Source: a virus (lineage: Duplodnaviria > Caudoviricetes). Taken from it: 64,000 nt of DNA. Position 1 is the first letter of the stretch, and each line of letters begins with the position of its first letter. This document shows, piece after piece, positions 6,226 to 27,896 of the stretch. Under the pieces are notes generated by a model that ran no database searches, was not told the origin of the DNA, and was given only the letters and a program-made list of their open reading frames with translations. The DNA lies in the IMG/VR virus record IMGVR_UViG_3300005459_000006, positions 4,721 through 68,720 of that record; one strand, written 5' to 3'. A program made the translations under genes and the position numbers.

Positions 6226-6236
6226 AGGTTATCATA

Positions 6237-13485: not shown

Positions 13486-13494
13486 GAGGATTTC

Positions 13495-13641
13495 ATGAAA
13501 CCGACTGATGAGGACGTGACCAAGTCCAACCAGGATCTGGATGAATCCAGTGAAGATCCAGACACCGACGAATTCGATGACGACGAGGACGAAGACAGCG
13601 AGTATGACGAATCGGACATGGAGGATGAAGAGGACGAATGA
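13495..13641 (+). CDS. 48-aa extremely acidic peptide (not in ORF track)
   Basis: AGGAGG RBS; MKPTDEDVTKSNQDLDESSEDPDTDEFDDDEDEDSEYDESDMEDEEDE; stop overlaps the next ATG. Confidence 0.75.
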   Translation: MKPTDEDVTKSNQDLDESSEDPDTDEFDDDEDEDSEYDESDMEDEEDE

Positions 13642-13844
13642 CTAGACTGGTCGCTCGTAACGGCAGAATCGAGAAGGAGTCAACCGTGGAATCAAAGGAA
13701 CCCGTCCCTCACAGTCTTACTCCCGCCCTCGAAGCGGTGCTGGCGGAGCTGAAAAAGCAGACTGAACTGATGGAGAAGATCAGCTCGGTCCTGAGCAGAC
13801 TGGCTGACATCCTCGACAAGGTCAGCGATGTCAAGGGACAGTAA
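13638..13844 (+). CDS. hypothetical coiled-coil protein
   Basis: ATGA coupling; amphipathic C-terminal helix. Confidence 0.55.
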   Translation: MTRLVARNGRIEKESTVESKEPVPHSLTPALEAVLAELKKQTELMEKISSVLSRLADILDKVSDVKGQ

Positions 13845-14025
13845 CGCGAAGCCCGACACGTTCATCGTCGTGCTCCGCTACGCGCGTGGCTCCGAGGAGA
13901 TATCCAAGGTCGTCTCGCTCGACATCAGTCTAGAACCGAACAACGCGGTCGCTCGTTTAGCCTTTACTGATGGTCACTCCGAGTGCTATCAAGGCTTTAA
14001 GGGCGTCAAGGTGCGAAATCCATAA
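13828..14025 (+). CDS. hypothetical protein
   Basis: overlapping, coupled ORF. Confidence 0.5.
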   Translation: MSRDSNAKPDTFIVVLRYARGSEEISKVVSLDISLEPNNAVARLAFTDGHSECYQGFKGVKVRNP

Positions 14026-14285
14026 TGGGACGCCGATACACTTATAGTCCATCCAATGTATGGGAGTGGACTCGTCAACGTAACTTCCGTTTTGCGTGCT
14101 GTGATTGTGGACTGGTCCATGTATTGGACTTCAAGATTGAACATACGCCCTTCTTCGCAAAGCTCTTCATGAAGGCGCGGCGAGATAATCGCGCGACCGG
14201 CCAGATACGCCGATGGGATCGCGCCAAGAAAAAGCGTGCAATAAATGATGTGCCACGATCTTCCAAACGCCGTCGTTTACCCTAA
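14025..14285 (+). CDS. small basic protein with CCDCGLVH motif
   Basis: TAATG coupling; metal-binding motif. Confidence 0.6.
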   Translation: MGRRYTYSPSNVWEWTRQRNFRFACCDCGLVHVLDFKIEHTPFFAKLFMKARRDNRATGQIRRWDRAKKKRAINDVPRSSKRRRLP

Positions 14286-14311
14286 TACTCTGTACGGAAC
14301 AGACAAAACAC

Positions 14312-14340
14312 TTGCAAAAGGTTAAAAAACGTGGTATAAT
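14312..14340 (+). promoter_or_regulatory. sigma70-type promoter of the primase gene
   Basis: TTGCAA-17 nt-TATAAT preceded by GTGG. Confidence 0.85.
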
Positions 14341-14374
14341 ATAAGTTTCCTCTGTCTACTCCGCATACTAGCGT

Positions 14375-16462
14375 ATGGCCGCCCTTCCAGTCTGGCTAGC
14401 CGACTATTATAAACGTGGATTTCGGCTTATCTTTTATCCCCCTCAGCAAAAAGGCCCAAGTGGTCTTGAAGCGAAAGATTGGCAGAAGCAGAGTCACACC
14501 ACCGAAGATTACGAAAAGTGGCTCGCAAAAGGAGTTCAACCGAATGTAGGCGTTTTCCTTGGAGTCGAGATTCAGCCAGGGAAATATTTAGCTGACGTGG
14601 ATTTCGACTGGTCGGAGGGACTCCGCCTTCATCGAACGATCTTACCACCCACCGGATTCGGCTTCGGTCGTGACTCCCGCCGTATCTCCCATGTTTTCTA
14701 TACGACTCCTGAACCGATCATCAATGAAGCTTTCAAAGATATCGATGAGAAGACGACTTTCGTCGAAATCCGAGGAGCTACGAAGGACGGCGATATCGGT
14801 CAGCAAACGATGGTCCCTCCCTCGATTCATCCCTCCGGGGAGAAGGTTGAAATTCGTTCTGATGACGAGATAGGCCACGCGACTAATCTTCGCAGAGCTA
14901 TTGTCCTTTACGCCGTCGCCTGTATCTTATTCAAGCATCTGGGCGATCGAGGTCTCCTCCACGACACAAGACTTGGCACCGCAGGTTTCCTTCTCAAAGA
15001 AGGCGTCTCAGAAGCTGAGGTCATCAGTATCTGTACTGCCGTAGCAGAGGTCACTAGGAACGATGTAACGGACGTCGCCACAGCCGTCAAATCCACCGCC
15101 AACCGCCTCAAAGCGCACGAACCGGTCAAAGGTCGCAGCGAGCTGATCAAGGCCATCGGTAAGCAGGGTCAGCAAGTCCTCAACCGAATCATGCGATGGC
15201 TCGGCCGCGAGGATTTCGTCTACAACGATAAGGGCAAGATCCTTCCAGACAACGAATCGAACATAACCATCGCCCTAGACAAGATGGATGTCCGACTCGC
15301 CTACGATGAGTTCAACAACCATCAATATATCAAGTATAACGGCTACGAGGGACAGAACAAGGGCATCATCAACAACCAAGTCTGGCTTGATATCCAGTCT
15401 AATTTCCACTTCAAGCCCGGCCTGGAGTTCTACTATATCGTCACTGACTCGATCGCCTATAAGCGGAAATTCCACCCAGTCCGCGACTACTTGGATAGCC
15501 TGAAGTGGGATGGGATCCCCCGGCTCGAGGAGTGGCTAATCAAATACGGACAGGCCGCCGATTCGCCCTATACGCGCGCAGTGAGCGCGATCGTTCTGAT
15601 TGCGGCCGTTCGACGAATCCGTCAACCGGGATGCAAGTTCGACGAGCTCATGGTCCTTGAGAGCGAGCAGGGGATGTTCAAATCTTCTGCCCTGCGAGCC
15701 TTGTGCCCGAGGGAGGAATGGTTTTCCGATGATTTGCCACTGTATGCTGATGCGAAGGAAATCATCGAGAGGACGACTGGGAAATGGATCATCGAGGCTT
15801 CTGAGTTGAGCGGAATGAGCGCACGAAATATAGATCACCTGAAGTCTATGTTGAGCCGTGAGAAAGACGAAAGCAGACTGGCCTATGGCCGAACGAGGGA
15901 ATCGTATCCACGTCAATTTATCATCATTGGGACCACGAATTCCCATAAATATCTGCAGGATGAGACCGGGAACCGCCGATTCTGGCCCATCCGTCTGCAA
16001 CAATTCAACATACCCGGTTTGAAAGCCGAGCGGGATCAGCTCTGGGCCGAGGCCGCTTCGAGGGAGGCTCAGGGCGAATCAATTCGCCTTGATCCCGGGC
16101 TGTATGGACAAGCTACCGTCCAGCAAGAGCGACGACGAATCGAAGATCCTTGGGAGATCACCCTCCGAACTCAGTTCGGCCAGCCCTGCCCCGATGAAGG
16201 ATGCGAATACGATCCCGTCAAAGATCGTCGTCATAAGCGAATTTGTAAGATCTGTGGTTACATCGATACGGGTGGCTGTCAGGTATCTGTGGACGCCGTC
16301 TACTCCGCCCTAGCTCTCCCCGTATCTCACCGAACGCCTGCCATGAGCAAGCGAATCAGCGCTATCATGCAAGGCCTCGGCTTCGTGTATGGCGTGTATA
16401 AAGATGCATCCACAAAGGGAATTAGCACGCGAGCCTGGATCAAGAAGCCGCCTGAATCTTGA
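14375..16462 (+). CDS. bifunctional primase-polymerase fused to a VapE/VirE-like helicase
   Basis: N-terminal NVGVFLG..LADVDFD, RISH..Y, MVPPSIHPSG; C-terminal EQGMFKS, IIEASE, FIIIGTTN, DETGNRRFWP. Confidence 0.9.
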   Translation: MAALPVWLADYYKRGFRLIFYPPQQKGPSGLEAKDWQKQSHTTEDYEKWLAKGVQPNVGVFLGVEIQPGKYLADVDFDWSEGLRLHRTILPPTGFGFGRDSRRISHVFYTTPEPIINEAFKDIDEKTTFVEIRGATKDGDIGQQTMVPPSIHPSGEKVEIRSDDEIGHATNLRRAIVLYAVACILFKHLGDRGLLHDTRLGTAGFLLKEGVSEAEVISICTAVAEVTRNDVTDVATAVKSTANRLKAHEPVKGRSELIKAIGKQGQQVLNRIMRWLGREDFVYNDKGKILPDNESNITIALDKMDVRLAYDEFNNHQYIKYNGYEGQNKGIINNQVWLDIQSNFHFKPGLEFYYIVTDSIAYKRKFHPVRDYLDSLKWDGIPRLEEWLIKYGQAADSPYTRAVSAIVLIAAVRRIRQPGCKFDELMVLESEQGMFKSSALRALCPREEWFSDDLPLYADAKEIIERTTGKWIIEASELSGMSARNIDHLKSMLSREKDESRLAYGRTRESYPRQFIIIGTTNSHKYLQDETGNRRFWPIRLQQFNIPGLKAERDQLWAEAASREAQGESIRLDPGLYGQATVQQERRRIEDPWEITLRTQFGQPCPDEGCEYDPVKDRRHKRICKICGYIDTGGCQVSVDAVYSALALPVSHRTPAMSKRISAIMQGLGFVYGVYKDASTKGISTRAWIKKPPES

Positions 16463-17398: not shown

Positions 17399-17853
17399 TT
17401 CTCTTGATAGCAAGAATATGCGATTCACGATTTCGCCGTTGACCTCCCTCGACCCGCCTGCCGCATCCCGAGGTCCGCCTCCCTCGAACCGATGCCCAGA
17501 TGGACGATTGGACAGAATTCAAAAATGGAAAAGATTGGAAACGCGGATATCAACCGAACTTTAAGAGCGTCCAACGTTGAAACTCAGTGTAATAAAACGA
17601 TGCAGATTGCACAAAATTGCACACTTCTGCACATCTTACATATCTGTAATTAGAGGCCCTTGACCTTTCCTACGTTCCCTCGATTAGTTGGGAGGATGGG
17701 ATAGGAAGTCGGGGATTTCGGTGACCTCAATGCCCCAATATCGGGCAGGGCGATGTCGGGCTCCTATCCAATTGGCACGATCTATGCTAGGAGCCTCCCA
17801 CTTACAATATTGGTAGTTGCAAACGGTTTAAAACTGTGGTATCATGCTTTCCT

Positions 17854-18591
17854 ATGGCAATCGAAGCTGGTCAACGGTATACGGCAGGGCATAGCGGCTG
17901 CCGGAAGTTTCCCCTTCCGGTGCAAGTAGTGTGCCTGAACCCTGTCAAACCGTGGGTCACGGTCAGGGACGAGCTCGGCGTGCGAAGTGTACGACTTAGC
18001 ACGATGTTGCACTGCATTGCCCACGGTTGCATTGCGCTCCTGGATAGCAAGAATCGTGCCACCAATTCTTACAAAATTGGTGCTTGCAATCCAGCAAAAA
18101 CTGTGGTAGAATGCTCTCATGCTGGCGCACGGGACGCGTCGGCAAACAACGGCAGGCCAATAACGGCCGAAAAGGAGATTAGCATGGCGGAAAACAACGG
18201 CGTTCAGACCCTCACGTTCTACAAGAACCACAAGGGCATCTACAGCTCGTTCAGGCTCGCGGGCGTTCGCGGCTCGGTCAACATCACCAACAAGATGTTC
18301 GTCGACGGGGTCATCCCGCAGACCATCCAGGTCAGCGGCCTCGTGCCGGAGGGCAGCGGCGAGGTCCCGGCGGACGTCGACCGCGCGGCGGCAGCGGCGG
18401 CGAAGGCGCAGGAGCGCGCGGAAAAGGCCAAGGCGAAAGCCGAGGCGCGGGCGGCGAAGGCGCAGGCCATCGCCGACAAGGCCAAGGCAGCGGCCGAAGC
18501 GGCTCTGGCTCGGGCGGCCAAGGCGCAGGAGGCGGCAAGCAAGTCCGGTGCCACGTCCGGCGAGCAGACCGGCGAGACGGCGGGCATGTAG
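17854..18591 (+). CDS. possible N-terminally extended form of the Ala/Lys-rich protein, from a near-leaderless start
   Basis: ATG 8 nt after the -10 box at 17840-17845; frame stays open through the next promoter into the 18184 ORF. Confidence 0.3.
   Translation: MAIEAGQRYTAGHSGCRKFPLPVQVVCLNPVKPWVTVRDELGVRSVRLSTMLHCIAHGCIALLDSKNRATNSYKIGACNPAKTVVECSHAGARDASANNGRPITAEKEISMAENNGVQTLTFYKNHKGIYSSFRLAGVRGSVNITNKMFVDGVIPQTIQVSGLVPEGSGEVPADVDRAAAAAAKAQERAEKAKAKAEARAAKAQAIADKAKAAAEAALARAAKAQEAASKSGATSGEQTGETAGM
18184..18591 (+). CDS. Ala/Lys-rich helical-tail protein, paralog A
   Basis: AAGGAG RBS; N-terminal beta domain QTLTFYKNHKGIYSSFRL plus AAAAKAQERAEKAKAK tail. Confidence 0.85.
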   Translation: MAENNGVQTLTFYKNHKGIYSSFRLAGVRGSVNITNKMFVDGVIPQTIQVSGLVPEGSGEVPADVDRAAAAAAKAQERAEKAKAKAEARAAKAQAIADKAKAAAEAALARAAKAQEAASKSGATSGEQTGETAGM

Positions 18592-18601
18592 TTTGCAGGG
18601 A

Positions 18602-18627
18602 CCGGGCTGACCTTCGGGTTGGCCCGG
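18602..18627 (+). terminator. GC hairpin with C(UUCG)G loop after paralog A
   Basis: CCGGGCTGACC-TTCG-GGTTGGCCCGG. Confidence 0.6.
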
Positions 18628-18967
18628 TCCTTGCAGACGAGGATTTCGGGCACGGAGCTTGCAGGGACGGCCTGAGCGTATGCAAGTTCCGTGCCACTGA
18701 TTTCCGTTAGTCGCAAGGCGACTTCCTACGATCTTCGCGACGACCGCGAGGATGCGATGGGAGGTCGGGTTCTTCCCTCCTCGGATATTGGGGCTATCGG
18801 CTCCTGGACCTCGGCAAATCTGCACGATTCTGCACAGACCTGCACACATTCTAGCATCTTACAATTTTGGTACTTGCATTCTGGCGGGCACCGTGCTAGA
18901 ATGGTCTTACGTTGGGCGCACGGTTCGCGACCTAACAAACAAGCGGCAAGGCCGCTGAAAGGTGTGT

Positions 18968-19339
18968 ATGGATACCATTCTGCAGACGCTGACGTTCCAC
19001 AAGACCCACAAGGGCATCTACAGCTCGTTCCGCCTGCCCGGAAACCGCGGGTCGGTCAACATCACCAACAGCCTGTTCATCGGCGGCGTGGTCCCCGCCA
19101 CGATCCAGGTGTCCTGCCTTGTGCCGGAGGGCTTCGGGCAGGTGCCCGATGACGCGGAAAAGGCCGCCGTGGCGGCTGCGCGGGCACAGGAAAAGGCCGA
19201 CAAGGCGCGCGAGAAGGCCGAAGCGCGGGTGGCGCGCGCGAACGCCATCGCCGAGAAGGCGCAGGCGGCTGCGGCCGCTGCGCTCGCTCGGGCGCAGGCT
19301 GCGGCGGAGCGGGTCAGCGGCGACGAAGCTGGCGCGTAG
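18968..19339 (+). CDS. Ala/Lys-rich helical-tail protein, paralog B
   Basis: QTLTFHKTHKGIYSSFRL..RGSVNITN, clearly homologous to 18184-18591; followed by a similar hairpin. Confidence 0.85.
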   Translation: MDTILQTLTFHKTHKGIYSSFRLPGNRGSVNITNSLFIGGVVPATIQVSCLVPEGFGQVPDDAEKAAVAAARAQEKADKAREKAEARVARANAIAEKAQAAAAAALARAQAAAERVSGDEAGA

Positions 19340-19557
19340 TTTGCAAGGGACGGGTCAGCCTCCGGGCTGGCCCGTTTCCTACGTTCCTCGCCTGAGGTCG
19401 TAGGATGGGATAGAAATCACGATCATCGATACCACGGATACTAGGGCTATTGGCGATCCTCCTGCACAATCCTGCACAGAGAACTCCCGGATTACAAAGA
19501 TAGTAGTTGCATCCAGTTTAAAACTGTGGTATCATGCTCTTACATTGGAGGTGGGCA

Positions 19558-19884
19558 TTGAACGCGATTAACTTCATCGAGGCCATCAAGTCGGTTCGGA
19601 CGCTCGGTCACAACCGTTACGAGGTCCGTCAAGGCATCAACGGTCAGGTCATCCTCGAGCCGGTCCCGTCGGTTGGCCTGAAGGAGGCCAAGGACTTCAT
19701 CGAGGAGGTCATGGCGATGGGCGTCCGTCGTTATCTGCAAGAGCAGATCAACGACTCCGACCGGAAGCTGGCTGATCGCATCCGCGAGCGGGACTATCAG
19801 GCACGGCGGGAGCAGCAGTCGTCGGCTTTTATCTCGGCTGATGATGCGGCTCCGCATCGCTACGACGACGACATCAAGTTCTAG
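19558..19884 (+). CDS. hypothetical protein with a ribosomal L7/L12 C-terminal-like motif (VGLKEAKDFIE)
   Basis: GGAGG RBS then TTG start; motif similarity only. Confidence 0.55.
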   Translation: MNAINFIEAIKSVRTLGHNRYEVRQGINGQVILEPVPSVGLKEAKDFIEEVMAMGVRRYLQEQINDSDRKLADRIRERDYQARREQQSSAFISADDAAPHRYDDDIKF

Positions 19885-19955
19885 CAAGAATCGTGCCGGA
19901 TGCGATTACAATCTTTGTAGTTGCATCCGGCAGAATTCTGTGGTAGAATGTTCTC

Positions 19956-20063
19956 ATGGTTAAGCACTGCGCCGCCTGTCACGCCGAAACGGAATTCGTG
20001 GTTACGCCGAACGGGCTCCGGTGCCTGATCTGCAAACTGATGAGAATGAGGTGGATCCGATGA
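19956..20063 (+). CDS. 35-aa leaderless Zn-finger peptide (not in ORF track)
   Basis: ATG 6 nt after TAGAAT; MVKHCAACHAETEFVVTPNGLRCLICKLMRMRWIR. Confidence 0.6.
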   Translation: MVKHCAACHAETEFVVTPNGLRCLICKLMRMRWIR

Positions 20064-20260
20064 GTGATGACCGCTCGATCAAGATGCACTGCGACGAGGA
20101 GATGCGCTCGCAGATCGAGTTCTGTGTCCGTCGCTATCGCTGGGAGGTCGAGCGATGGATTGAGCGGAAGCGAGCTGCGGGGCAGCCGATTGGCGACCTC
20201 CAGCGTGAGCTCGAGCTCACCGACAAATGCCTGAAGGAGGCACAGGAGGCGGGGACCTAG
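20060..20260 (+). CDS. small helical hypothetical protein
   Basis: ATGA coupling and GAGGTGG RBS. Confidence 0.65.
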   Translation: MSDDRSIKMHCDEEMRSQIEFCVRRYRWEVERWIERKRAAGQPIGDLQRELELTDKCLKEAQEAGT

Positions 20261-20475
20261 CATGAAACATGCCATCGCCTACGGGCTGACGCTCCGGAAA
20301 GACGGAGTAATTTCTTAGATTCCCTCTGGGCGAGCTGAGGACTCGCCCAGAGGCGTCGTGCAATGAACTCCTCGATGCCCCAGTCCGCAAGGCTCTTTTC
20401 CTCTTCAATTACAAAATTAGTGGTTGCAAACCGTTTAAAACTGTGGTATAATGCTTTCATGATGAGGGAGGTCAA

Positions 20476-20814
20476 ATGGACGGACTCGTAACGGTGGAGG
20501 TCAAGCTGCGGGCGGTGATTCGGATCCCGCGCAACATCAACTTCCGGCTGAAGCAGGGCAACGACGCCACGTTCCAGCTCTGGGAGACAGACCTCGGGAA
20601 TCGGCTCGGGGGACAGGCGGTCGTCGACGAGGTGAACGAGGTCATCGCCCTCGCCGTGGGACAGCGAAATCACGCTCAGGGCGAGCGGGCCAACGAAACG
20701 CCTGTCGAGAACCTCGGCGACGTGACGCGCGAGACGCTGGCGGAGCATCTCGCCGACCGCGTGGTCGAGATGACGATCGCCGGTCGTCGCGGGCAGAAGC
20801 GGAGGAAGAAGTAG
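20476..20814 (+). CDS. hypothetical protein with basic C-terminus
   Basis: own promoter and GGAGG RBS. Confidence 0.75.
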   Translation: MDGLVTVEVKLRAVIRIPRNINFRLKQGNDATFQLWETDLGNRLGGQAVVDEVNEVIALAVGQRNHAQGERANETPVENLGDVTRETLAEHLADRVVEMTIAGRRGQKRRKK

Positions 20815-20885
20815 CACGAAATATGCCAGATGCAATTACAATCTTTGTAGTTGCATCTGGCGATGTTCTGTGGTAGAATGCTCTT

Positions 20886-21122
20886 ATGCCAAACAACGTT
20901 CCGACCGCACGCTTCAACATCGCCGTCGACGAATACGAACTCGAAATTGTTCGTCAGGCTCTTCGCGCCTACCGCAGCAAGCTCCTTGCTGAGCTCGATG
21001 AACTCATCGAAACGAGCAAGGACCTCTGCCCGACGGACAATCCGGAGAACAATCCGGACGTCTCGACGACTCGTGAATGGCTGGACCGTCTCGCTGTGCT
21101 TCGCGAGCGCGTCGCTGCCTAA
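20886..21122 (+). CDS. leaderless hypothetical protein
   Basis: ATG 6 nt after TAGAAT. Confidence 0.75.
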   Translation: MPNNVPTARFNIAVDEYELEIVRQALRAYRSKLLAELDELIETSKDLCPTDNPENNPDVSTTREWLDRLAVLRERVAA

Positions 21123-21317
21123 AGCAAGAATCGGGCCAGTTCTGCAAACGGACTGGCCCGACCTCTTTCCCTCTTCCTCGAGGGAGTCGGGAGGATTGGA
21201 CAGAAATCGGTCTGGGCGATTCTGGAAATGCCCCAATACGAACAACGAAATATGAACAACGAAAAACGAAACATGAAATGGCTTGCATTTCCCGGGAACC
21301 TGTGGTAGAATGCTCTT

Positions 21318-21533
21318 ATGCCGAAAACGAAACTCGTTTCATGGGTTGTGTACCACGTTCACGTCAAGATCAAGGCGGACACGAAGGAGCGCATCGAGGA
21401 GGTCGCCAAGAAGACTCGCCGGGACATCGGCTTCGATATTCGAGGCCGCGGCATTTGCTTGGAGGTGGAAGATGATTCGCTAATCGTCAATCTCGAGAAG
21501 ATCTGCGACGCCGAGGAAGTCCGGGTGGACTGA
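21318..21533 (+). CDS. leaderless hypothetical protein
   Basis: ATG 6 nt after TAGAAT. Confidence 0.75.
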   Translation: MPKTKLVSWVVYHVHVKIKADTKERIEEVAKKTRRDIGFDIRGRGICLEVEDDSLIVNLEKICDAEEVRVD

Positions 21534-21600
21534 ACACTTACAGAATTGGTAGTTGTCAATTACCACGTTCTGTGTTACAATGCTCTGCATGGAGGTCAGC

Positions 21601-21807
21601 ATGGCATACGTCAGGCCGAATTTCAAGTCGAAGAAAGAGCTGAAGGACGCGGTCGCCGCCGGTCGCACGGTCACGGTCTTCCAGCCTGGACTGGGCTCGG
21701 TTCCAGTCAACGGTGAGATTGACGTCGAGGGACCTCACTTCCCTCAGCCTCATCGTTGGTATGGATACGTGACGCTGGAGGCGGGTCGGGTCGTCAAGGT
21801 CCGCTAA
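21601..21807 (+). CDS. small phage protein (RPNFKSKKELKDAV...EGPHFP.PHRWY)
   Basis: GGAGG RBS and own promoter; motif recalled from small early phage proteins. Confidence 0.8.
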   Translation: MAYVRPNFKSKKELKDAVAAGRTVTVFQPGLGSVPVNGEIDVEGPHFPQPHRWYGYVTLEAGRVVKVR

Positions 21808-22228
21808 GGGACCGGAGTGAGGTTGGCCGAGCGCTGACCTCACTCTGCTCAGTTTTCGTTTTGATTGGAAATCGCCCGCAAATCCCGCCTTTAGAGCGCA
21901 TCACGATGGCTCCCCGGCTCAACTTGAGCCAGATCGTGCAATTCCGTCCGCCCATCCGTTAACGCCCATCGCCACCAATCCCGCCAGAACTCGCCAAAAG
22001 GGGATAGGAACGTCCAGCCGAAGTATGCCCGATACTCGGGGTATCGGTCCTATCCCATCCCCGATATGCAACGGTCGTGCCAGACCGTGTTCTACCAAAA
22101 TGTAACACGAAGTACGGAAATGGCACACTTTCCTTTACGGAAGTGCACATCGTTGCACGATTTCGCGCTGGCATCGGCCATGCACTCTTAGTCGGCGGCA
22201 ATTACGCCAGCTTCGAGGTAAAACTTAC

Positions 22229-22429
22229 ATGACCAAATTTGTTATCCAGGCGCATACCAACGGCACGAAGATTGCAATCCCCGCTCCGGGCCATACGGCC
22301 GAACGCGCCCTGCATAACGTGCGCCGGAACCGCTGGGTCCGCCACGCCGCCGTGCTTACCGTTTTTGAACGCAAAACCGGAAATTTGGTTTTGGCGGTCA
22401 ACGGTCCGCGCCGCGCGGCTTCCTACTAG
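22229..22429 (+). CDS. small basic hypothetical protein
   Basis: GAGGT RBS; sigma54-like motif at 22169 upstream. Confidence 0.55.
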   Translation: MTKFVIQAHTNGTKIAIPAPGHTAERALHNVRRNRWVRHAAVLTVFERKTGNLVLAVNGPRRAASY

Positions 22430-22437
22430 CAAAATCC

Positions 22438-22463
22438 GGGCCAGCCTTCGGGCTGGCCCTTTT
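22438..22463 (+). terminator. hairpin with C(UUCG)G loop and short U tract
   Basis: GGGCCAGCC-TTCG-GGCTGGCCC-TTTT. Confidence 0.7.
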
Positions 22464-22480
22464 CTGCAAGGGATGTACCA

Positions 22481-22738
22481 ATGACGAATAACCAATTTGA
22501 CATTTACGATACTGCCCTCCTCGAGATGGCATGTGATTTGTATCAGTCTATCGGCCACGACCTCCAGGCCGCGGCCGGTCTTGGCACGGAAGATGCATAC
22601 GTCGAGGATGAGGAAGTGGCATCCATCTTGCAGGACCGGATGCGCGATTATCTGCTGGAACATGGCACGAATCTTGTTCCGCTCTGGGATGCCCTGTCCG
22701 ACGACAAGCGCTTTCGCTTGTGCCTGATGGCACTATAG
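22481..22738 (+). CDS. acidic hypothetical protein
   Basis: AAGGGA upstream; 85 aa. Confidence 0.55.
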   Translation: MTNNQFDIYDTALLEMACDLYQSIGHDLQAAAGLGTEDAYVEDEEVASILQDRMRDYLLEHGTNLVPLWDALSDDKRFRLCLMAL

Positions 22739-22950
22739 GTTAGAATCCCGCTGGAAGTCGCCAAACGGCGATATCCAGTGGGTTGATTTTAAGCTGCAGA
22801 CTCGGGGTATCGGGTCCAGGCCATGCGCCGTTCCTGTCTGTGTTCACCCAAGATGTAACACAGGCGCCAGAATTGTACACAGCTCGTGCACGATCTTGCG
22901 CGGACCTGCACACTTCTATACGTGGCACGACCCATGCTTATCTATAGGGC

Positions 22951-23064
22951 ATGGCAAACAAGGCATCGACCAAAATCGTAATCACCCAGTATTACAAAAT
23001 CGGTAACGACATCTATGCTCCGATTCAGTACATCCCGCTTGTGCTGGTCGCTAGCAAGAACTAG
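22951..23064 (+). CDS. 37-aa peptide (not in ORF track)
   Basis: ATG about 2 nt after the start site predicted from the sigma54 motif at 22923. Confidence 0.35.
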   Translation: MANKASTKIVITQYYKIGNDIYAPIQYIPLVLVASKN

Positions 23065-23068
23065 GCCA

Positions 23069-23185
23069 ATGGCAAAATACACAATCGTAATGACGCGGTC
23101 CGAGTTTAGCAAAAAGCCTGCCAAAAAGCGTATCAAATCTATGCTCAAGGCAGGCGGCGGCGTCCGTGTAATTTTTACTCGGTAA
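23069..23185 (+). CDS. 38-aa basic peptide (not in ORF track)
   Basis: MAKYTIVMTRSEFSKKPAKKRIKSMLKAGGGVRVIFTR, starts 4 nt after the previous stop. Confidence 0.35.
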   Translation: MAKYTIVMTRSEFSKKPAKKRIKSMLKAGGGVRVIFTR

Positions 23186-23212
23186 ACACGTAACCCTAGC
23201 AAAGGATGTGCC

Positions 23213-23401
23213 ATGAAGGATACCATTATTGTAATCATCGTCTTGGCGTGCCTCTGGCTCGCTTCTTGCAGTTCGCCCGTCGCGCCTGCACACATCTGCA
23301 CGACCCAGCCGAGGGCATATGCCCTACCTGACGGAAGTGTAAGTATGGAGGTGGACACGTATGCAAGTCCCGTGCCGTGTCCTGCTGTGCCCATCCTGTA
23401 A
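23213..23401 (+). CDS. small lipoprotein
   Basis: MKD plus hydrophobic core plus lipobox LAS-C; AAGGA RBS. Confidence 0.6.
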   Translation: MKDTIIVIIVLACLWLASCSSPVAPAHICTTQPRAYALPDGSVSMEVDTYASPVPCPAVPIL

Positions 23402-23629
23402 CACATACGGTAAACCCTTGATACGCAATGGTTTACCGTGCTCCGTTTTGGTAGGCACGGGAACCAAAATGCAACATGGTCCTACACGAAGTAGCACAGG
23501 GTTGCACACCTCTACACATGGTACGGATGGTGCAGTAGTCAATGGCATGGCATACGGTAAACAGCATCCTAACCCACGCGTCCCTTACAAGGTTGTAAGT
23601 GCGCTCAAGCGCACAAAGGCAGGTAAATA

Positions 23630-23896
23630 ATGACTCTTGGCACCGTTCTTGCTCGTGGTTGGCAGGCTCCCTCCGGTTTGGCCGCATACCCGCAGGTCCC
23701 CGTTGGCACGGACATTGCAGCGGCTACCTACCGCTACAATGCCTCCTTGGCACGGTTCCTGCGGCTTACAGAAATGGCAGTGGCACGGCGCAGCAAGATT
23801 CGTGCCGCCCATCGCCGCTACCTGCGCCGCATTGGCATGCCTCTTGCTCCCCTGCCCAAGGGTAGCAAGTATCGTGCCAAGGGTCGTAAACCCTAG
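23630..23896 (+). CDS. basic hypothetical protein; may be secondary to the RpoN-motif array it overlaps
   Basis: ORF track; six sigma54-like motifs inside. Confidence 0.35.
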   Translation: MTLGTVLARGWQAPSGLAAYPQVPVGTDIAAATYRYNASLARFLRLTEMAVARRSKIRAAHRRYLRRIGMPLAPLPKGSKYRAKGRKP

Positions 23897-24242
23897 CACT
23901 AGCAAGGGCCGTGCCATCACCTCCGGTGGCACGGCTTATTTCCACGTACTAATTCTGTAATACATATCTGTAAGTACCATCCTGTAATTACAATCCTGTT
24001 CTTACAATTTCGTTCGGCGGGTTCCGGGTTTCGCGTCGCTCGTCCATCGCGCATCCCCAATCCCGCTCCCCAAATTGACTTCACCTATTCCCGGAAACCG
24101 AAACCCGCCAGCTAAATCACGGAATTCCCAACCCGCCTCCCAAAGCCAACCGGAACAGCCCTTGACATTATTATTCGCGCGGGCGCGAGCGCGTAGCAAG
24201 GAACATGCCAAGCACCGTTCACCGTGTAACTCTTACATGGGC

Positions 24243-24271
24243 TTGCAATCGAAGACGTCTTGTGGTATACT
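24243..24271 (+). promoter_or_regulatory. sigma70-type promoter upstream of the packaging genes
   Basis: TTGCAA-17 nt-TATACT preceded by TGTGG. Confidence 0.75.
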
Positions 24272-24492: not shown

Positions 24493-24906
24493 ATGACCAA
24501 CATTTTTGACGAGCACCTGCCTCCTCTTCCCTCGAAGGAGGAGTCCGCGACGGAGGAACGGTCACGTTCCAACAAGCGAGATGTGGAAGGGGTGGGAGTG
24601 CTCGCGCTGCGACGTGGGCAGATCCGGCTGCAAGAACTCAGTGGTGAGGCGTTTGATACTCTGCGGGAAGCTATGAGATTCGCGGAGTATCCGGTGGCTG
24701 TATCCGCGGCCAAGGCTGTGCTGGATCGGTCGGGGTTTGGGCCGACATCGACGCTCAAGATTCAGGAAGGCGATCTGGAAGAACTGTCGACTTCGGAGCT
24801 TGCCGCTCTGGCGATCAAGCTCGCTTCTCGTTTAGCACCAAATCATCAATCCGAATCGAACGTATCAGTTGAAACGCCGGGACCGACTCTGAAACGAGTC
24901 CATTAG
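24493..24906 (+). CDS. putative terminase small subunit
   Basis: helical protein directly upstream of TerL; AAKAVLDRSG motif typical of TerS-like proteins. Confidence 0.6.
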   Translation: MTNIFDEHLPPLPSKEESATEERSRSNKRDVEGVGVLALRRGQIRLQELSGEAFDTLREAMRFAEYPVAVSAAKAVLDRSGFGPTSTLKIQEGDLEELSTSELAALAIKLASRLAPNHQSESNVSVETPGPTLKRVH

Positions 24907-24993
24907 GACTTGTCGGTCTAGGACACAACGATACCCTCCTCCTCTGCACTTCTGGCGGACCAGAATCCGCGCGCAGCCGCGCGGCTGGAAGAG

Positions 24994-26487
24994 TTGCCGC
25001 CGGAAGATGCACTGATCTTAATCACAAGAGAACTGGAACGACGGCGATTTTTGGAACGGCCCGACGAGTGGGTACGGGAACGTCTGCGCGAACATATGTG
25101 GTCGTTCCAGAAACAAGTTATTCTGGCTGTGCAGCAGCATCGTTTGGTGCTGGTAAAGACTTGTCATGGGGTGGGCAAATCGTGGACGGCGGCTCGGACA
25201 GCCGGTCACTGGTTGGATGTTCATCCGCGGGGTAAGGCTTTCGTAGTGACGAGCGCTCCATCTGCGCCGCAGATCAAGGCGATTCTGTGGAGGGAGATCG
25301 GGCGGGTTCACGACATTGGAGGGCTAGACGGACGGGTCAATCAGTTGGAGTGGTACATGACGGTTGCGTCGGGGAGGGAGGAACTCGTCGCATTCGGTCG
25401 TAAACCTGATGACTATGATCCGGCGGCTTTTCAGGGTATCCATGCACGATTCGTTTTAGTCATCCTCGATGAGGCTAACGGGATTCGAGGAGCTTTGCAT
25501 GAAGCCGCGTCGTCGCTCATTGCGAACGACTATGGGCGCATGCTCATGATCGGGAATCCGGACGATCCTCAGGGGGAATACTTTGAAGCGTCGAAGCCAG
25601 GATCAGGATGGTTCGTCCTCCAAGTCGGGGCATTCGACTCGCCGAACTTTACGGGCGAAGAAATCCCAGCTGAGCTTCGGCATGACCTTATCGGCAGACT
25701 CTACGTTGAAGAGAAAAGGCGGAAATGGGCGCCGAAATGGGTCTGGGTTGACAAAGAAGGTCAGCCTTCGAGTCCTGAAGAAGGAGTTAGGGTAGTCCCA
25801 CCGGCAGACATCAGGCCAGAAGAGATCAATCCGTTCTGGTCGTCAAAAATACTCGGCGAATTCCCAGCCGTCTCCCTCGAGCAGTCCCTCATTCCTCTTT
25901 CCTGGATCCTTGCAGCTCAAAAACGGACTCTGATGAGGCGCGGAGGCGGCACCATCGGGTTAGACGTTGGGGCGGGCGGGGATGCATCGTGCGGAGCACA
26001 CAACGATTCGGGTGTTTGCCGGATTCTTTGGGAGGACAACAACCCTGACACGATGCAGACGTGTGGTAAGGCCGTGGAGGCGTTGCATGAAGTCGGGGCG
26101 GAGAAGGTTCATGTAGACGTAATCGGAATCGGTCGGGGAGTGGTGGATCGGGGGAAGGAACTTGGTGAGCCTTTCTTTGAAGTCAACGTTTCTGATGCAC
26201 CAGATGACCCGAAGCGATTCCTCAACCACCGATCCGAGATTTGGTGGGATGTACGGACTGCTTTTGAGCGTGGTCAGATCGATTTGGACCCTGAAGACGA
26301 GGATACTGCGGCGGAACTCGTTGAAATTAGGTATAAGAGGTCCTCCGTTGGCAAAATCCAGATTGAATCAAAGCAGGAGGCCAAAAATCGAGGTGTGAAG
26401 TCGCCGAATCGCGCAGAATCTATCATGCTGTCGTATGCGAAGATTCGGAAAAAGTATACTGAAGCAACATGGGGAGCTAAGAACTAA
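24994..26487 (+). CDS. terL: terminase large subunit
   Basis: Walker A HGVGKS, Walker B VILDEA, GNP, nuclease GLDVG and VDVIG, SPNRAES. Confidence 0.93.
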   Translation: MPPEDALILITRELERRRFLERPDEWVRERLREHMWSFQKQVILAVQQHRLVLVKTCHGVGKSWTAARTAGHWLDVHPRGKAFVVTSAPSAPQIKAILWREIGRVHDIGGLDGRVNQLEWYMTVASGREELVAFGRKPDDYDPAAFQGIHARFVLVILDEANGIRGALHEAASSLIANDYGRMLMIGNPDDPQGEYFEASKPGSGWFVLQVGAFDSPNFTGEEIPAELRHDLIGRLYVEEKRRKWAPKWVWVDKEGQPSSPEEGVRVVPPADIRPEEINPFWSSKILGEFPAVSLEQSLIPLSWILAAQKRTLMRRGGGTIGLDVGAGGDASCGAHNDSGVCRILWEDNNPDTMQTCGKAVEALHEVGAEKVHVDVIGIGRGVVDRGKELGEPFFEVNVSDAPDDPKRFLNHRSEIWWDVRTAFERGQIDLDPEDEDTAAELVEIRYKRSSVGKIQIESKQEAKNRGVKSPNRAESIMLSYAKIRKKYTEATWGAKN

Positions 26488-26489: not shown

Positions 26490-27896
26490 ATGGGATCAGG
26501 AATGGAGGCACTCCGTACGTTGGCGTCCATTATTGGCCCACGAGCGGCTCTCTCAGCTGCTTTAGGAAAGACTTTCGGTGGAATGCGGGACCTCGCACGG
26601 GTCCTGGGCTACAAATCAAGTCTCGATATCAACGACTATCGCCTATGTGCGCGACGGAATCCTTTGGGCAGTCGCATCATTCGGGCATTCCCTCAAGGGA
26701 CATGGAGGGGTGGCGGGGAGCTGATCGAGGACGATGAGAAGCAGGATTACACGCCGTTCGAGAAGCAGTGGCACGATCTTGCTGTGCGCCTCAGGTTGTG
26801 GCGCGTGTTTTATCGTGCTGATGTCCTTGCTGGCCTGGATCGCTATTCTTGCATTCTCCTCGGAGCACCCGGTGCGCTGAACACTCCGCTACAAGATGCT
26901 CGCGGACCTGAAGATTTGGTCTACGCGAAGCCTTACGCGGACGATATCCTCACAATTGAGGAGTTGGAGTCCAATTCCAACGATATTCGGTTCGGCAAGC
27001 CGAAAATGTATCGTCTGAAGCCTCCAAAGCTCGATAAAGAAGTCAAAGTCGTGAAATTTCCGACTTTGGAAGACAAGATGGTCCATTGGACCCGCGTAAT
27101 CCACGTTTGCGACGACTTGGAAGACGATTTATACGGTTCTCCTCGACTGGAATGCGTTTGGAACCGACTGGATGACCTGGATAAGGTCACTGGTGGAGGC
27201 GCAGAGGCGTTCTGGTTGAGGGCGAATCAGGGGATTCAGGTTGACGTTGAGAAAGAGATCGATCTCTCCACTGAGGCGGAAAAGAGACTCGATGAAGAGG
27301 TCGATCGCTATATCCACGAAATTTCGCGAGTTTTGCGAACTCGTGGCACAACGGTCAACACGTTGGGAAGCGAAGTTGCGGACTTTAAGAACCCGGTAGC
27401 CGCGATTATCGCTCAAATTTGCAGCGGAACTGGAATTCCGCAGCGAATTTTGATGGGTTCGGAGCGTGGTGAGCTCGCATCGACTCAGGATCGAGACAAT
27501 TGGTTCGATCAGATCGGTGATAGGCGCTTACAGTTCGCGGAACCGAATCTTATCAACGTTTTGACCGACCGTTTGATTGAATTTAAGTTCCTCGGAAAGC
27601 CCGCACAGTACGAAACTCGCTGGTCGCAGCTGAAAAGTCTGGATGACGGACAAAAAGCCGACTTGGCGATCAAAATCGCGACCGTTAACAAGTATCAGGG
27701 CGAAACGGTCGTTACGGCGGACGAAATTCGGGACCGCGTGTTTGGTTATCCGAAGTTGACCGAGGAACAGAAGAAAGAAGAGGCGGCTAAGGCCGCGGCG
27801 AAGAAGCCAGCTTTCGGTCAACCTCCAGGACAGCCCGGTTCTCGTAAGAATCCGGCTCTTCCGGAGGATGCAAATCAGGTGCGGGCACAGCAATGA
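26490..27896 (+). CDS. portal protein (DUF1073-like)
   Basis: position after TerL; YGSPRLE, TGIPQRILMG..GELASTQDRDNW. Confidence 0.85.
   Translation: MGSGMEALRTLASIIGPRAALSAALGKTFGGMRDLARVLGYKSSLDINDYRLCARRNPLGSRIIRAFPQGTWRGGGELIEDDEKQDYTPFEKQWHDLAVRLRLWRVFYRADVLAGLDRYSCILLGAPGALNTPLQDARGPEDLVYAKPYADDILTIEELESNSNDIRFGKPKMYRLKPPKLDKEVKVVKFPTLEDKMVHWTRVIHVCDDLEDDLYGSPRLECVWNRLDDLDKVTGGGAEAFWLRANQGIQVDVEKEIDLSTEAEKRLDEEVDRYIHEISRVLRTRGTTVNTLGSEVADFKNPVAAIIAQICSGTGIPQRILMGSERGELASTQDRDNWFDQIGDRRLQFAEPNLINVLTDRLIEFKFLGKPAQYETRWSQLKSLDDGQKADLAIKIATVNKYQGETVVTADEIRDRVFGYPKLTEEQKKEEAAKAAAKKPAFGQPPGQPGSRKNPALPEDANQVRAQQ

Follow-up and report, generated by a model that had tools for sequence, protein, structure and literature searches.

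Sigma-54 holoenzyme binds promoters stably without transcribing (PMC4591121; PMC7057263). Intragenic and antisense sigma-54 sites can be promoters, and an AAA+ domain without a DNA-binding domain activates them without enhancers (PMC3844500). At glmY, bound sigma-54 represses the overlapping sigma-70 promoter (PMC3045617), while roadblock repression by bound holoenzyme was tested and not seen in E. coli genes with intragenic sites (PMC4591121). Among phages, Pseudomonas phage YuA needs sigma-54 for some promoters (PMC10914365), and antisense promoters opposing early genes are found as well, such as P001 of LUZ19. Here we examined a 64-kb stretch (the window) of the 68.7-kb contig of an uncultured soil phage, IMG/VR record IMGVR_UViG_3300005459_000006, in which a dense cluster of sigma-54 consensus motifs lies in a block of small genes ahead of the DNA-packaging genes.

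Enrichment, identity and conservation of the motif

The original prediction described eight perfect TGGCAC-N5-TTGCW sites and about 19 near-perfect copies at 17773-24210, and this observation is confirmed and is stronger than first described. All eight perfect sites are present at the positions and strands given, and a ninth, at 18538-18553 on the minus strand, had been missed. Lack of enrichment over a shuffled background had been named in advance as an outcome that would count against the prediction. Instead, we found nine perfect sites against 0.11 expected, with at most one in any of 100 dinucleotide shuffles, and no perfect site elsewhere in the window or in the 4.7 kb of the contig outside it. 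The 19 near-perfect copies all exist with one or two mismatches and an intact GG-N10-GC core. With at most one mismatch there are 30 sites against 1.94 expected, of which 29 lie in 17773-24210 and one at 54961. With at most two mismatches, 41 of 74 sites lie in this 10% of the window. For comparison, a whole 4.5-Mb rpoN-positive genome has three perfect sites. Site density in the cluster is about one per 160 bp.

The motif is the sigma-54 consensus, also at positions that were not used to pick the sites (YTGGCACGr). A G follows TGGCAC in 23/29 sites of the window, 19/31 and 11/21 sites of the two closest relatives (L133 and L134, below), and 34/53 sites of unrelated phages. The next base is mostly a purine, the base before is mostly a pyrimidine, and the motif stays asymmetric. 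Unrelated viral contigs with GC contents of 0.34-0.57 carry clusters of the same motif but share no protein with this region, which favors a host factor as the reader.

The cluster is conserved at the same genome position in the two closest relatives, L133 (70% terminase identity), which has 31 sites, and L134 (67%), which has 21. In both, all sites lie in the pre-terminase small-gene block and none in the structural genes. The cluster fades in more distant kin, and most of about 130 other terminase relatives, which include prophages in rpoN-less Actinomycetota and Chloroflexi, have none. The 52 terminase relatives in GTDB genomes have 0 perfect and 9 one-mismatch sites in about 0.8 Mb, and 80 IMG/VR relatives show no general enrichment. 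Four of five host genomes tested for the motif-free relatives lack rpoN. The host of the present phage has not been identified and its possession of rpoN is inferred.

Architecture of the cluster

The sites and their neighboring features, in window coordinates, are as follows.

17773-24210, both strands: the whole cluster, in the small-gene block between the PrimPol/VapE primase (14375-16462) and the packaging genes (24493-26487).
17608-23517, plus strand: TGCAC-N5-TGCAC direct repeats at 10-bp period in eight clusters, next to both promoter types (14 found, 3.7 expected, all in this span).
17817-21581, plus strand: a row of strong sigma-70-type extended -10 promoters driving small plus-strand cassettes, called by a prediction tool at 17817, 18084, 20424 and 21553, with further copies read by eye near 18875, 19507, 19921, 20839 and 21285. 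At least three are leaderless (ATG 19956, 20886, 21318).
18046-18061, minus strand: perfect antisense box of a boundary module, 22 nt upstream of the -35 of the sigma-70 promoter at 18084-18112.
18538-18553, minus strand: perfect intragenic antisense site in gene 18184-18591; the L133 paralog has one at 2513.
18648-18696: face-to-face pair (18648 plus, with one mismatch; 18681 minus, perfect) after gene 18184-18591; the same pair with the same central spacer occurs in L133 (3617 plus/3666 minus).
19883-19898, minus strand: antisense box fused to the TAG stop of gene 19558-19884; the stem-loop starts in its -24 half, and the next sigma-70-type promoter follows.
20259-20274, minus strand: antisense box (two mismatches) fused to the TAG stop of gene 20060-20260; orthologous box in L133 at 5900; strain-specific gaps end here.
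20813-20828, minus strand: antisense box (two mismatches) fused to the TAG stop of gene 20476-20814; part of the 18-pair stem-loop 20824-20862.
21123-21138, minus strand: antisense box directly after the stop of gene 20886-21122; its -24 half (TGGCCC) is inside the terminator stem.
22067-22082, minus strand: perfect intergenic site facing left, at the left edge of the first sense module.
22101-22184, plus strand: sense module 1, with TGTAACAC (22101), TGCAC repeats (22144-22158) and the core TGGCATCGGCCATGCA (22169-22184); predicted start 22195, 34 nt before ATG 22229 with a GAGG ribosome-binding site; ortholog in L133 at 6956.
22428-22443, minus strand: antisense box fused to the TAG stop of gene 22229-22429; its -24 half is inside the intrinsic terminator 22438-22459.
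22854-22938, plus strand: sense module 2, with TGTAACAC (22854), TGCAC repeats (22887-22911) and the core TGGCACGACCCATGCT (22923-22938); predicted start 22949, 2 nt before ATG 22951 (leaderless 37-aa ORF).
23053-23068, minus strand: antisense box (two mismatches) overlapping the stop of ORF 22951-23064.
23198-23213, minus strand: perfect antisense box between ORF 23069-23185 and the lipoprotein-like ORF 23213-23401.
23397-23534, plus strand: sense module 3, with TGTAACAC (23397), TGCAC repeats (23493-23517) and the core TGGTACGGATGGTGCA (23519-23534; TGGCAC in other strains); predicted start 23545, 2 nt before the ATG of the conserved 27-aa ORF 23547-23630.
23630-23916, both strands: 88-aa basic ORF (23630-23896) holding seven sites in both orientations, plus the perfect box at 23901 (minus) inside its terminator stem; the gene and its three 3'-half sites are conserved in L133.
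24195-24210, minus strand: last antisense box, back to back with the sigma-70-type promoter 24243-24271 that heads the packaging/structural operon; counterparts in L133 (8641 minus) and L134 (2643 minus).
54961-54976, plus strand: the only site with at most one mismatch outside the cluster; it points into the 3' end of the minus-strand gene 55164-55844.

Two conserved module types could be distinguished. The sense modules at 22169, 22923 and 23519 are copies of one unit of about 150 bp, in which a distal element (TGTAACAC) is followed by 10-bp-phased TGCAC repeats that abut the -24 box and by a -24/-12 core with a weakened -12 element. They lie in a part of the block where no sigma-70-type promoter was found between 21.6 and 24.2 kb. 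The same geometry is conserved in relatives, and predicted starts in L134 lie 13-16 nt before ATGs. The core plus 12 nt plus the ATG of the 27-aa ORF is invariant in three phages while the flanks diverge. Five sense promoter regions align as one module, with TGCAC repeats and TGTAACAC both enriched, although the TGTAACAC element is not conserved in L133 and no classical enhancer has been shown.

The antisense boxes at gene ends are also strongly ordered. Of 16 stop-overlapping sites, 13 are antisense (p=0.02), and 11 share one register, with TAG fused to the -12 box, across three phages. Module copies are paralogous, so the counts of independent sites and the statistical tests overstate independence. 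TAGCA...TGC are the only invariant columns across eight boundaries, and stem-loops of -21 to -33 kcal/mol start in the -24 half. Intragenic sites, in contrast, show no strand bias (24 sense, 26 antisense), which fits occupancy as well as firing.

The boundary modules also match the layout of PeSLs (stop codon, stem-loop, strong sigma-70 promoter, next ORFan) in a hyperplastic block, and the box may be conserved mainly as shared homology that lets small genes be swapped, not for what binds it. In other soil strains, cassette-sized gaps and contig breaks fall at 20259, 20810/20814 and 22430, that is at boxes, and gene content between primase and terminase differs among relatives. However, homology for recombination could be any sequence, yet here it is the sigma-54 consensus, as in unrelated phages. 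The box is the only invariant part, also at boundaries without a promoter, and many sites are intragenic or lie in sense modules. We consider a recombination linker very unlikely as the whole explanation, though it is compatible with the promoter reading below and does not replace it.

Possible roles of the sites

The original prediction held that most copies are badly placed to be promoters (inside ORFs, antisense or convergent), and that the phage may instead titrate host sigma-54 polymerase or use it as a DNA-bound repressor or sensor of host nutrient state. This interpretation is partly supported. The motif is the sigma-54 consensus and is extremely enriched, about half of the copies are antisense or intragenic, and no enhancer-binding protein is encoded. 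That the copies are simply badly placed is not supported, given the spacing of the three sense sites and the register of the antisense boxes.

We favor real sigma-54 promoters, sense and antisense, over a pure sponge, with a probability of roughly 0.5. In this view, the cluster is a set of genuine docking sites for the host's sigma-54 holoenzyme, built into two regulatory modules of the variable block of small early/accessory genes, and most of them work as promoters. The sense modules would transcribe the 22.2-23.9 kb sub-block. The antisense boxes, fused to the stop codons of cassettes driven by strong sigma-70 promoters, would give antisense RNA and converging transcription that shut the early cassette down, and until activated would hold a silent polymerase. 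What the analysis itself establishes is the presence of the sites, their enrichment, consensus, conservation, placement and register; that sigma-54 reads them, that RNA starts there, and what turns them on are inferred, as neither binding nor RNA was measured and no start site has been observed for this phage. The density of sites, with seven in one 88-aa gene and face-to-face pairs, far exceeds what promoters need. The phage also carries a thymidine hypermodification operon, and modified T in the TTGC box could alter recognition.

Searches of the 68.7-kb contig, which is about 85% complete, found no Sigma54_activat AAA+ domain, Sigma54 DNA-binding domain or sigma-70-family factor, and no activator gene was found in five other array-bearing contigs. 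Activation must therefore come from a host enhancer-binding protein, possibly acting from solution on such strong sites, or from an unrecognized phage factor. A protein that binds the TGCAC repeats is one candidate.

The sponge proposed originally is not excluded, but appears unlikely. Under this reading, as the phage genome replicates, hundreds to thousands of near-perfect sites would soak up the scarce sigma-54 holoenzyme and starve host sigma-54-dependent stress or defense programs, with the few promoter-like copies being incidental. The excess of perfect sites in 6 kb over a whole rpoN-positive genome, the crowded 88-aa gene and face-to-face pairs, the lack of strand bias among intragenic sites, the absence of an activator gene and the stable, silent binding of the holoenzyme all fit this idea, as do unrelated phages with tandem arrays at a 25-bp period and overlapping palindromic pairs that cannot all fire. 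Conversely, a sponge needs neither orientation nor register, yet gene-end sites are 13:3 antisense, and sense sites keep exact promoter-to-ATG spacing across three phages. The sites are confined to regulatory positions of one gene block rather than spread over the genome or gathered in one array, and most terminase relatives have no cluster.

Occupancy could also act in cis, with silent holoenzyme parked at cassette boundaries blocking read-through or competing with the neighboring or overlapping sigma-70 promoter, so that early-gene output would depend on how much free sigma-54 holoenzyme the host has. The box sits at a fixed 22 nt from the -35 of the next sigma-70 promoter, in the position of its upstream element, and three boundaries (18046, 19883, 20813) have no U-tract terminator between the stop codon and the next promoter. 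Sense cores in L134 overlap TGC-TATAAT-like -10 elements, and repression at glmY offers a precedent. However, we regard this reading, which is not excluded either, as unlikely, since no roadblock repression was seen in E. coli, the box in the boundary modules does not overlap the sigma-70 -35 or -10 elements, and strong stem-loops already provide attenuation, as in PeSLs.

It is also possible, though unlikely, that the motif is bound by a different phage or host protein, or that the sense copies are sigma-70 extended -10 promoters whose upstream half binds a phage factor, with a convergent likeness to the sigma-54 consensus. Sense sites can be read as extended -10 promoters predicting nearly the same start, especially in L134 (TGC-TATAAT), whereas antisense boxes have no -10-like element. 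Phage-specific elements abut the -24 box, namely TGCAC repeats in the window and L133 and CTAAGRATTYT in L134, and the cluster is limited to a narrow clade, as the sites of a private factor would be. Against this, the match extends to unselected positions, and the same asymmetric 16-mer clusters in unrelated phages of very different GC content. No small protein is common to all cluster-bearing relatives and no sigma factor was found in the contig. A search for a single-subunit RNA polymerase was also blank, but it found nothing in its control genomes either and is uninformative. In favor of this alternative, the host and its rpoN status are not known and no binding data exist.

Comparison with phage YuA

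The original prediction stated that no phage system like this is described, which needs one qualification, as YuA uses a few sigma-54-type late promoters. YuA is the only published phage precedent we found, and we could not find the use of this host enzyme proposed here described for any phage. YuA has three weak late promoters and no array. In the phage studied here and its two closest relatives, 20 to 40 near-perfect sites are instead packed into the block of small genes ahead of the packaging genes, a few placed as forward promoters and many fused backwards onto the stop codons of early genes.

The site cluster and its sequence identity

Here we examined a cluster of sigma-54-type sites in a 68,720-bp IMG/VR viral contig that is about 85% complete and has linear ends; the window analysed is bases 4721-68720 of this contig. 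The same DNA is present in many rhizosphere and soil metagenome runs; no RNA run is listed among the public runs, and expression was not examined. The cluster lies between a PrimPol/VapE primase-helicase gene and the packaging genes. A codon-usage model trained on the long ORFs of the contig places all convincing genes of 17.4-24.7 kb on the + strand. This stretch holds 16 small genes of 27-135 codons, and none has a Pfam or PHROG family. Pfam and PHROGs searches of the small genes, the flanking genes and the contig start revealed no regulator, the only lead being a DksA/TraR zinc-finger hit below cut-off, and Rfam and tRNA searches returned nothing. Genes and elements in and around the block are as follows.

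14375-16462: PrimPol/VapE primase-helicase gene.
18184-18591 and 18968-19339: two paralogous genes with a conserved N-terminal domain of about 55 aa (TLTF.K.HKGIYSSFRL...) and a long Ala/Lys/Glu-rich helical tail; two copies occur in relative L133 and one in relative L135, with no family match.
19956-20063: leaderless 35-aa zinc-ribbon ORF (CxxC...CxxC) starting 6 nt after a -10 element, conserved in L133 (63% identity).
23213-23401: 62-aa ORF with a signal peptide and lipobox (LWLASC), a small lipoprotein within the sigma-54 sense block, of the kind phages use for superinfection exclusion.
23940-24010: four CTGTAA(T/G) repeats at a period of about 10-14 bp in the gene-free stretch between the last small gene and the packaging operon, followed by a C-rich tract. 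Other strains replace 24106-24219. This could be a packaging or replication signal.
24493-24906: small-terminase-like gene.
24994-26487: large terminase gene.
26490-27896: portal gene.
58404-58880, minus strand: 158-aa protein with a weak DksA/TraR C4 zinc-finger match (22.3 bits, cut-off 24.9), a possible binder of the RNA polymerase secondary channel.

The pattern TGGCAC-N5-TTGCW occurs 9 times against 0.11 expected, and no shuffle gave more than 1. Lack of enrichment over background had been named beforehand as one of the outcomes that would refute the original prediction, and the observation held: all eight perfect sites it reported are correct, although a ninth, at 18538 on the minus strand, was missed. 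With one mismatch allowed there are 30 sites against 1.94 expected, 29 of which lie in 17773-24210 and one at 54961. With two mismatches, 41 of 74 sites lie in this tenth of the window, and the -24 GG and -12 GC cores, 10 bp apart, are intact in the two-mismatch copies that were kept. The 4.7 kb of the contig outside the window has no perfect site. For scale, a 4.5-Mb rpoN-positive alphaproteobacterial genome has 3 perfect sites, and an 8.2-Mb Streptomyces genome has none. A longer repeat unit was considered and rejected, since the flanks of the sites are not conserved in general and only the boundary and sense modules described below are; the unit is therefore the 16-17-bp motif.

Positions that were not used to pick the sites agree with the extended sigma-54 consensus YTGGCACGr-N3-TTGCW (Barrios et al. 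1999). The base after TGGCAC is G in 23/29 window sites, in 19/31 sites of L133, in 11/21 sites of a second relative, L134, and in 34/53 sites of unrelated phages, and it is almost never T. The next base is mostly a purine, and the base before the motif is mostly a pyrimidine. A palindromic dimer site was rejected because the two halves stay different (GG against GC) in all sites, and an RNA-level motif was rejected because copies occur on both strands in nearly equal numbers.

A scan of IMG/VR for one 16-mer variant returned more than 118 loci, many of which, with GC from 0.34 to 0.57, have their own clusters, tandem arrays or face-to-face pairs of perfect sites. None shares a protein with this gene block. 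Among these unrelated contigs, L082 (15-130) has five identical sites in tandem at a 25-bp period at a contig end, L108 (11257-11326) has three in tandem, and L103/L073 (L103 7739-7993) and L022 (4152-4185) have overlapping face-to-face pairs, TGGCAC-N5-TTGCTAATGCAA-N5-GTGCCA. L082, L108 and a further contig, L026, share the junction TTGCTACGCG...GCGC with window site 24195. The simplest common reader across such different phages is a conserved host factor, and sigma-54 is the one known to read this sequence (PMC7057263).

Distribution among relatives and hosts

The terminase has thousands of uncultured homologs, and the motif was next sought around them, a comparison with related phages that the original prediction had proposed as a check. 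L133 (70% terminase identity) is syntenic, with the primase followed by about 9 kb of small genes and then terminase and portal, and it has 31 sites with at most 1 mismatch, all between 2513 and 8641. L134 (67%) has 21 sites, all within 2.6 kb upstream of its terminase. More distantly, L135 (57%) has 7 sites in the equivalent block, L189/L201 (57%) has 8, L188 has 2 perfect sites and L190 has none. In L189, six co-oriented sites lie just upstream of the terminase (1157-1430), three of them inside an 81-bp tandem repeat, next to TGTCAAATTT(T/C)TGAC palindromes. A single-protein terminase scan of IMG/VR found nothing, and a primase scan gave four distant loci without sites.

Two controls bound the phenomenon. 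Fifty-two terminase-related loci in named GTDB genomes (Actinomycetota, Chloroflexi, Alphaproteobacteria and others; about 0.8 Mb) have no perfect site and 9 one-mismatch sites, which is background. Eighty IMG/VR relatives (40-59% identity) show no general enrichment, with 36 sites upstream of terminase, 16 downstream, and 52 for the reversed-pattern control. Of five genomes that hold motif-free relatives, four show no rpoN match (Actinomadura, Streptomyces, a Chloroflexia MAG and an Actinomycetota MAG, although the two MAGs may be incomplete), while the fifth, Lacibacterium, has it. The dense cluster is therefore a conserved trait of a narrow clade, with weaker versions in a few cousins. It is missing where the host cannot supply sigma-54, but having rpoN in the host is evidently not sufficient.

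This is indirect evidence that the host carries rpoN, as the host of this phage was not identified and its gene content was not examined. A DNA-level search of the region against cultured phages gave no match, and a tblastn search with the terminase against cultured phages gave at most 40% identity, to phages of very different hosts, so that no host could be inferred. Hits in GTDB genomes are scattered over many phyla, and the nearest is a doubtful Saccharibacteria bin.

Arrangement of the boundary and sense modules

From 17.8 to 21.6 kb, each small gene has a strong sigma-70-type promoter (TTGCAA/T, 17 nt, TAGAAT with a TG extension). In at least three cases the ATG follows the -10 element by 6 nt, or 6-7 nt, giving leaderless mRNAs (19956, 20886, 21318). 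Sigma-54-type boxes lie on the opposite strand at the ends of the preceding genes. Across the window, L133 and L134, 16 sites overlap a stop codon, of which 13 are antisense (binomial p=0.02), and 11 of those are in exactly the same register: the TAG stop is the complement of the A that follows TTGCT plus the first bases of the box, T-AGCAAG. In an alignment of eight boundaries from two phages, including three that have no promoter after them, the only invariant columns are TAGCA and TGC, which are the -12 and -24 cores. Each boundary also folds into a strong stem-loop (-20.8 to -33 kcal/mol, z -4.4 to -8.0 in five promoter-bearing units of the window and L133; 22428 is weaker at z -2.9). The stem begins inside the -24 half of the box and is either a long hairpin that reaches the -35 of the next promoter or an intrinsic terminator. 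The layout is therefore maximally compact, with the stop codon overlapping the -12 box and the -24 box overlapping the stem.

This unit resembles the promoter-early stem-loops (PeSLs) of T4-type phages, in which recombination between units shuffles genes in a hyperplastic region (PMC2839356). In line with that, contigs from other soil and rhizosphere samples skip whole cassettes (20388-20865, 20124/20136-20259 and 22430-22799) and break at 20810/20814, so the small-gene block varies between co-occurring strains with junctions at the boxes, including 20259, 20810/20814 and 22430. Some of these joints have short flanks, and the comparison leaves gain and loss of ORFans by recombination between units undecided. 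A pure recombination linker is the least likely of the readings considered, although it is compatible with the promoter model discussed below. The genome itself has siphovirus-type packaging and tail genes and no T4-like core; the unit works like a PeSL but does not belong to that group.

Between 21.6 and 24.2 kb the promoter scan finds no sigma-70-type promoter on the + strand, and three sense sigma-54-type cores are present instead. The start rule used is 12 nt after the C of GC, which equals 19 nt from the motif centre as used in PMC4591121.

22169, sense: predicted start at 22195, 34 nt before an ATG that has a ribosome-binding site; an ortholog is present in L133.
22923, sense: predicted start at 22949, 2 nt before ATG 22951.
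23519, sense: predicted start at 23545, 2 nt before the ATG of a 27-aa ORF.

The 27-aa ORF with its core is present in L133 and L134, where GG-N10-GC, the 12-nt gap to the ATG and the first codons are invariant while the flanks diverge. As a marker of cluster-bearing phages this peptide failed, since a pattern search found it only in the window and L133 and tblastn also found it in L134, and it does not track the motif more widely. In three other strains a T>C change at 23522 turns TGGTAC into TGGCAC, whereas 22077 G>A gives TGGCAT; these are anecdotal, the strain differences examined being too few for a test of selection. Promoter geometry is thus satisfied for these three cores and for L134 sites 202, 684, 869, 1767 and 2281, but most other sites are antisense or intragenic and no start site has been observed, so the geometry does not settle whether the sites as a whole are placed as promoters.

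The five sense promoter regions of the window and L133 align over about 150 bp as copies of one module. The first part is the word TGTAACAC (4 found, 0.65 expected), which lies 68, 69 and 122 nt upstream of the cores, or 94-95 nt before the predicted start in two modules and 148 nt in the third. It is only a candidate activating sequence and is not conserved in L133. The second part is a set of TGCAC-N5-TGCAC direct repeats at a 10-bp period, all on the + strand, in eight clusters within 17608-23517 (14 found, 3.7 expected). These end 2-12 nt before the -24 box of the three sense cores, and they also lie 12-55 nt upstream of the TTACAA box or -35 of some sigma-70 promoters. L133 has them at the orthologous promoters, and they are probably the site of an unidentified DNA-binding protein. 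TGCAC with a 6-nt gap was not enriched, the true spacing being 5. The third part is the core itself.

L134 uses a different adjacent element, CTAAGRATTYT, in place of the TGCAC repeats, 14-15 nt upstream of three sense cores (170-200, 1735-1765 and 2250-2280), and its four gene-proximal cores predict starts 13-16 nt before ATGs with ribosome-binding sites. Sense gene-proximal cores usually have a weakened -12 box (ATGC, GTGC or TGGC), with TTGC intact in 2/11, against 16/22 in antisense gene-end boxes (Fisher p=0.008, although the copies are not independent). In L134 the -12 TGC is followed by TATAAT-like hexamers (4-6 of 6 matches), and those promoters could therefore also, or instead, be extended -10 sigma-70 promoters predicting nearly the same start. 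The window's sense cores are less -10-like (3-4 of 6). The antisense boxes are not -10-like in general, with mostly 2-3 of 6 matches and two at 4 of 6, one of them TAGAAC with a TG extension at 19883. A reader other than sigma-54 is considered unlikely.

About half of all sites are intragenic and show no strand bias (24 sense, 26 antisense). The 88-aa basic ORF 23630-23896 holds seven sites and is a real gene, conserved in L133 (51% identity). In its conserved half three sites are kept, one of which changes its spacer non-synonymously (SKIR to SNLR) while its core positions stay, and another of which loses a core base. A face-to-face pair after gene 18184-18591 is conserved in L133 with the same central spacer.

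Possible mechanisms and comparison with known systems

The contig has no Sigma54_activat AAA+ domain (PF00158), no sigma-54 and no sigma-70-family factor. A search for a single-subunit RNA polymerase also found nothing, but that search had no positive control. Five other array-bearing IMG/VR contigs, all incomplete, also lack the AAA+ domain; the activator content of L133-L135, L188 and L189 was not examined, nor was that of the host. Sigma-54 closed complexes cannot open without such an ATPase, which is normally bound 100-150 bp upstream (PMC7057263). However, an AAA+ domain without a DNA-binding domain activates Salmonella sigma-54 promoters in general, including some intragenic sites (PMC3844500). 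We infer that near-consensus phage sites could plausibly be fired by whatever host activator is active.

The orientation and register of the gene-end boxes, and the conserved promoter-to-ATG spacing of the sense modules, argue that direction matters, which fits promoters and is not needed for a sponge. We place a probability of about 0.5 on the promoter model, sense plus antisense. The analysis itself establishes that the cluster is real, statistically extreme, conserved in a clade and organized; that sigma-54 reads the motif is inferred, binding by the holoenzyme and dependence of transcription on rpoN were not assayed, and the activator and the host have not been demonstrated experimentally. 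The interpretation in the original prediction, that the sites may titrate host sigma-54, was only partly supported. The number and quality of the sites fit a titrating decoy array, while orientation and register at gene ends and the fixed promoter geometry do not, so these observations point both ways, and we regard a sponge as unlikely. Occupancy acting in cis, such as gating of neighbouring sigma-70 promoters, appears less likely still. Roadblock repression by silent holoenzyme at intragenic sites was looked for and not found in E. coli, although repression at overlapping promoters, and interference from active sites, are possible (PMC4591121). The very high density, the intragenic copies, the face-to-face pairs and the missing activator keep such occupancy-based roles open.

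A more speculative view, which we consider unlikely, is that phages of this clade, and many unrelated phages, use silent sigma-54 RNA polymerase itself as a structural and regulatory part. Parked holoenzymes at dozens of near-perfect sites would mark cassette boundaries and gate the adjacent sigma-70 promoters. As the genome replicates they would also drain the host's small sigma-54 pool, so that sigma-54-dependent stress and defence responses could not be mounted, and transcription from most sites would not be the point.

Sigma-54 is the one bacterial sigma factor that binds DNA and then waits for an ATP-driven activator, and it controls stress, envelope, nitrogen and motility programmes. Phage transcription studies have dealt almost entirely with sigma-70, phage sigma factors and phage polymerases. 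Our literature searches found no paper describing sigma-54 site arrays in phages, and the only sigma-54 precedent found is a handful of late promoters in Pseudomonas phage YuA. A phage clade that keeps 20-40 consensus sites in its early region, in fixed architectures, would imply a second host transcription route that phages exploit, either to time or silence early genes or to disarm the host. It also raises the question of what activates, or is blocked by, sigma-54 during infection when the phage brings no activator. The modules are short and synthesisable, and the stop-codon-fused antisense box and the leaderless sense module are compact parts that could be of use in synthetic biology.

Bacterial enhancer-dependent sigma-54 promoters such as glnAp2, nifH and pspA (reviewed in PMC7057263) share with the cluster the -24 GG and -12 GC boxes, their spacing and the extended consensus, and three sense copies here sit at the right distance from genes. 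The cluster differs in having no activator gene and no demonstrated enhancer at -100 to -150, in its density of about 40 sites in 6.4 kb against about 135-250 bound sites in all of E. coli (PMC4591121), in that half of the sites are antisense or intragenic, and in being carried by a phage.

YuA is a siphovirus without its own RNA polymerase that depends on host sigma-70 and sigma-54 (Ceyssens et al. 2008, as cited in PMC10914365), and one of its sigma-54-like promoters has a mapped start (PMC10914365). Its GenBank record (NC_010116) annotates three active promoter-trap fragments with '-24/-12 consensus', all sense and in the late structural genes, and the same scan finds no YuA site with at most 1 mismatch. 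Here there are 29 such sites, all in the early/accessory block and none in the structural genes, and many are antisense. The two phages share a related thymidine-hypermodification module: in window 4629-8182 against YuA 12652-15328, the putative hmdU kinase-like gene (31%) and the thymidylate-synthase-like gene (45%) match YuA gp14 and gp17, and PolA and the SNF2 helicase match more weakly. How modified T affects recognition of TTGC is not known. The DNA-modification module is therefore shared with the Yuavirus group, while the structural genes are not. Phage use of sigma-54 promoters is thus known in one case, whereas the dense early-region cluster, the stop-codon-fused antisense box and the leaderless sense module are not.

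In E. coli and Salmonella, holoenzyme sits silently at many sites inside genes and in antisense orientation; some are real promoters, and antisense RNA or interference has been proposed (PMC4591121, PMC3844500). Those sites are sparse, mostly weak and biased to the sense strand (68%), whereas here they are dense, near-consensus, unbiased inside genes and fixed in antisense orientation at stop codons. At the overlapping sigma-70/sigma-54 promoters of glmY and glmZ, a -12 TGC followed by a -10-like hexamer allows both holoenzymes to start at about the same base, and bound sigma-54 represses the sigma-70 promoter (PMC3045617). GlmY has defined GlrR enhancer sites and IHF sites, and in the present clade the overlap is clear only in L134 and weak in the window. 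The antisense promoter P001 of phage LUZ19 likewise points against the coding strand and is proposed to stop transcription from running into early genes, but it is a single copy, read by the phage's own RNA polymerase, and is not a host sigma-54 site (PMC10914365). Finally, the PeSLs of T4-type phages RB49 and phi1 are repeated units that run from the stop codon of one ORFan to the start of the next, each with a strong sigma-70 early promoter and a stem-loop, in a hyperplastic region with cassette gain and loss (PMC2839356). PeSLs have no sigma-54-type box, and this phage is not T4-like; here the box is the most conserved part of the unit and also occurs without the promoter.
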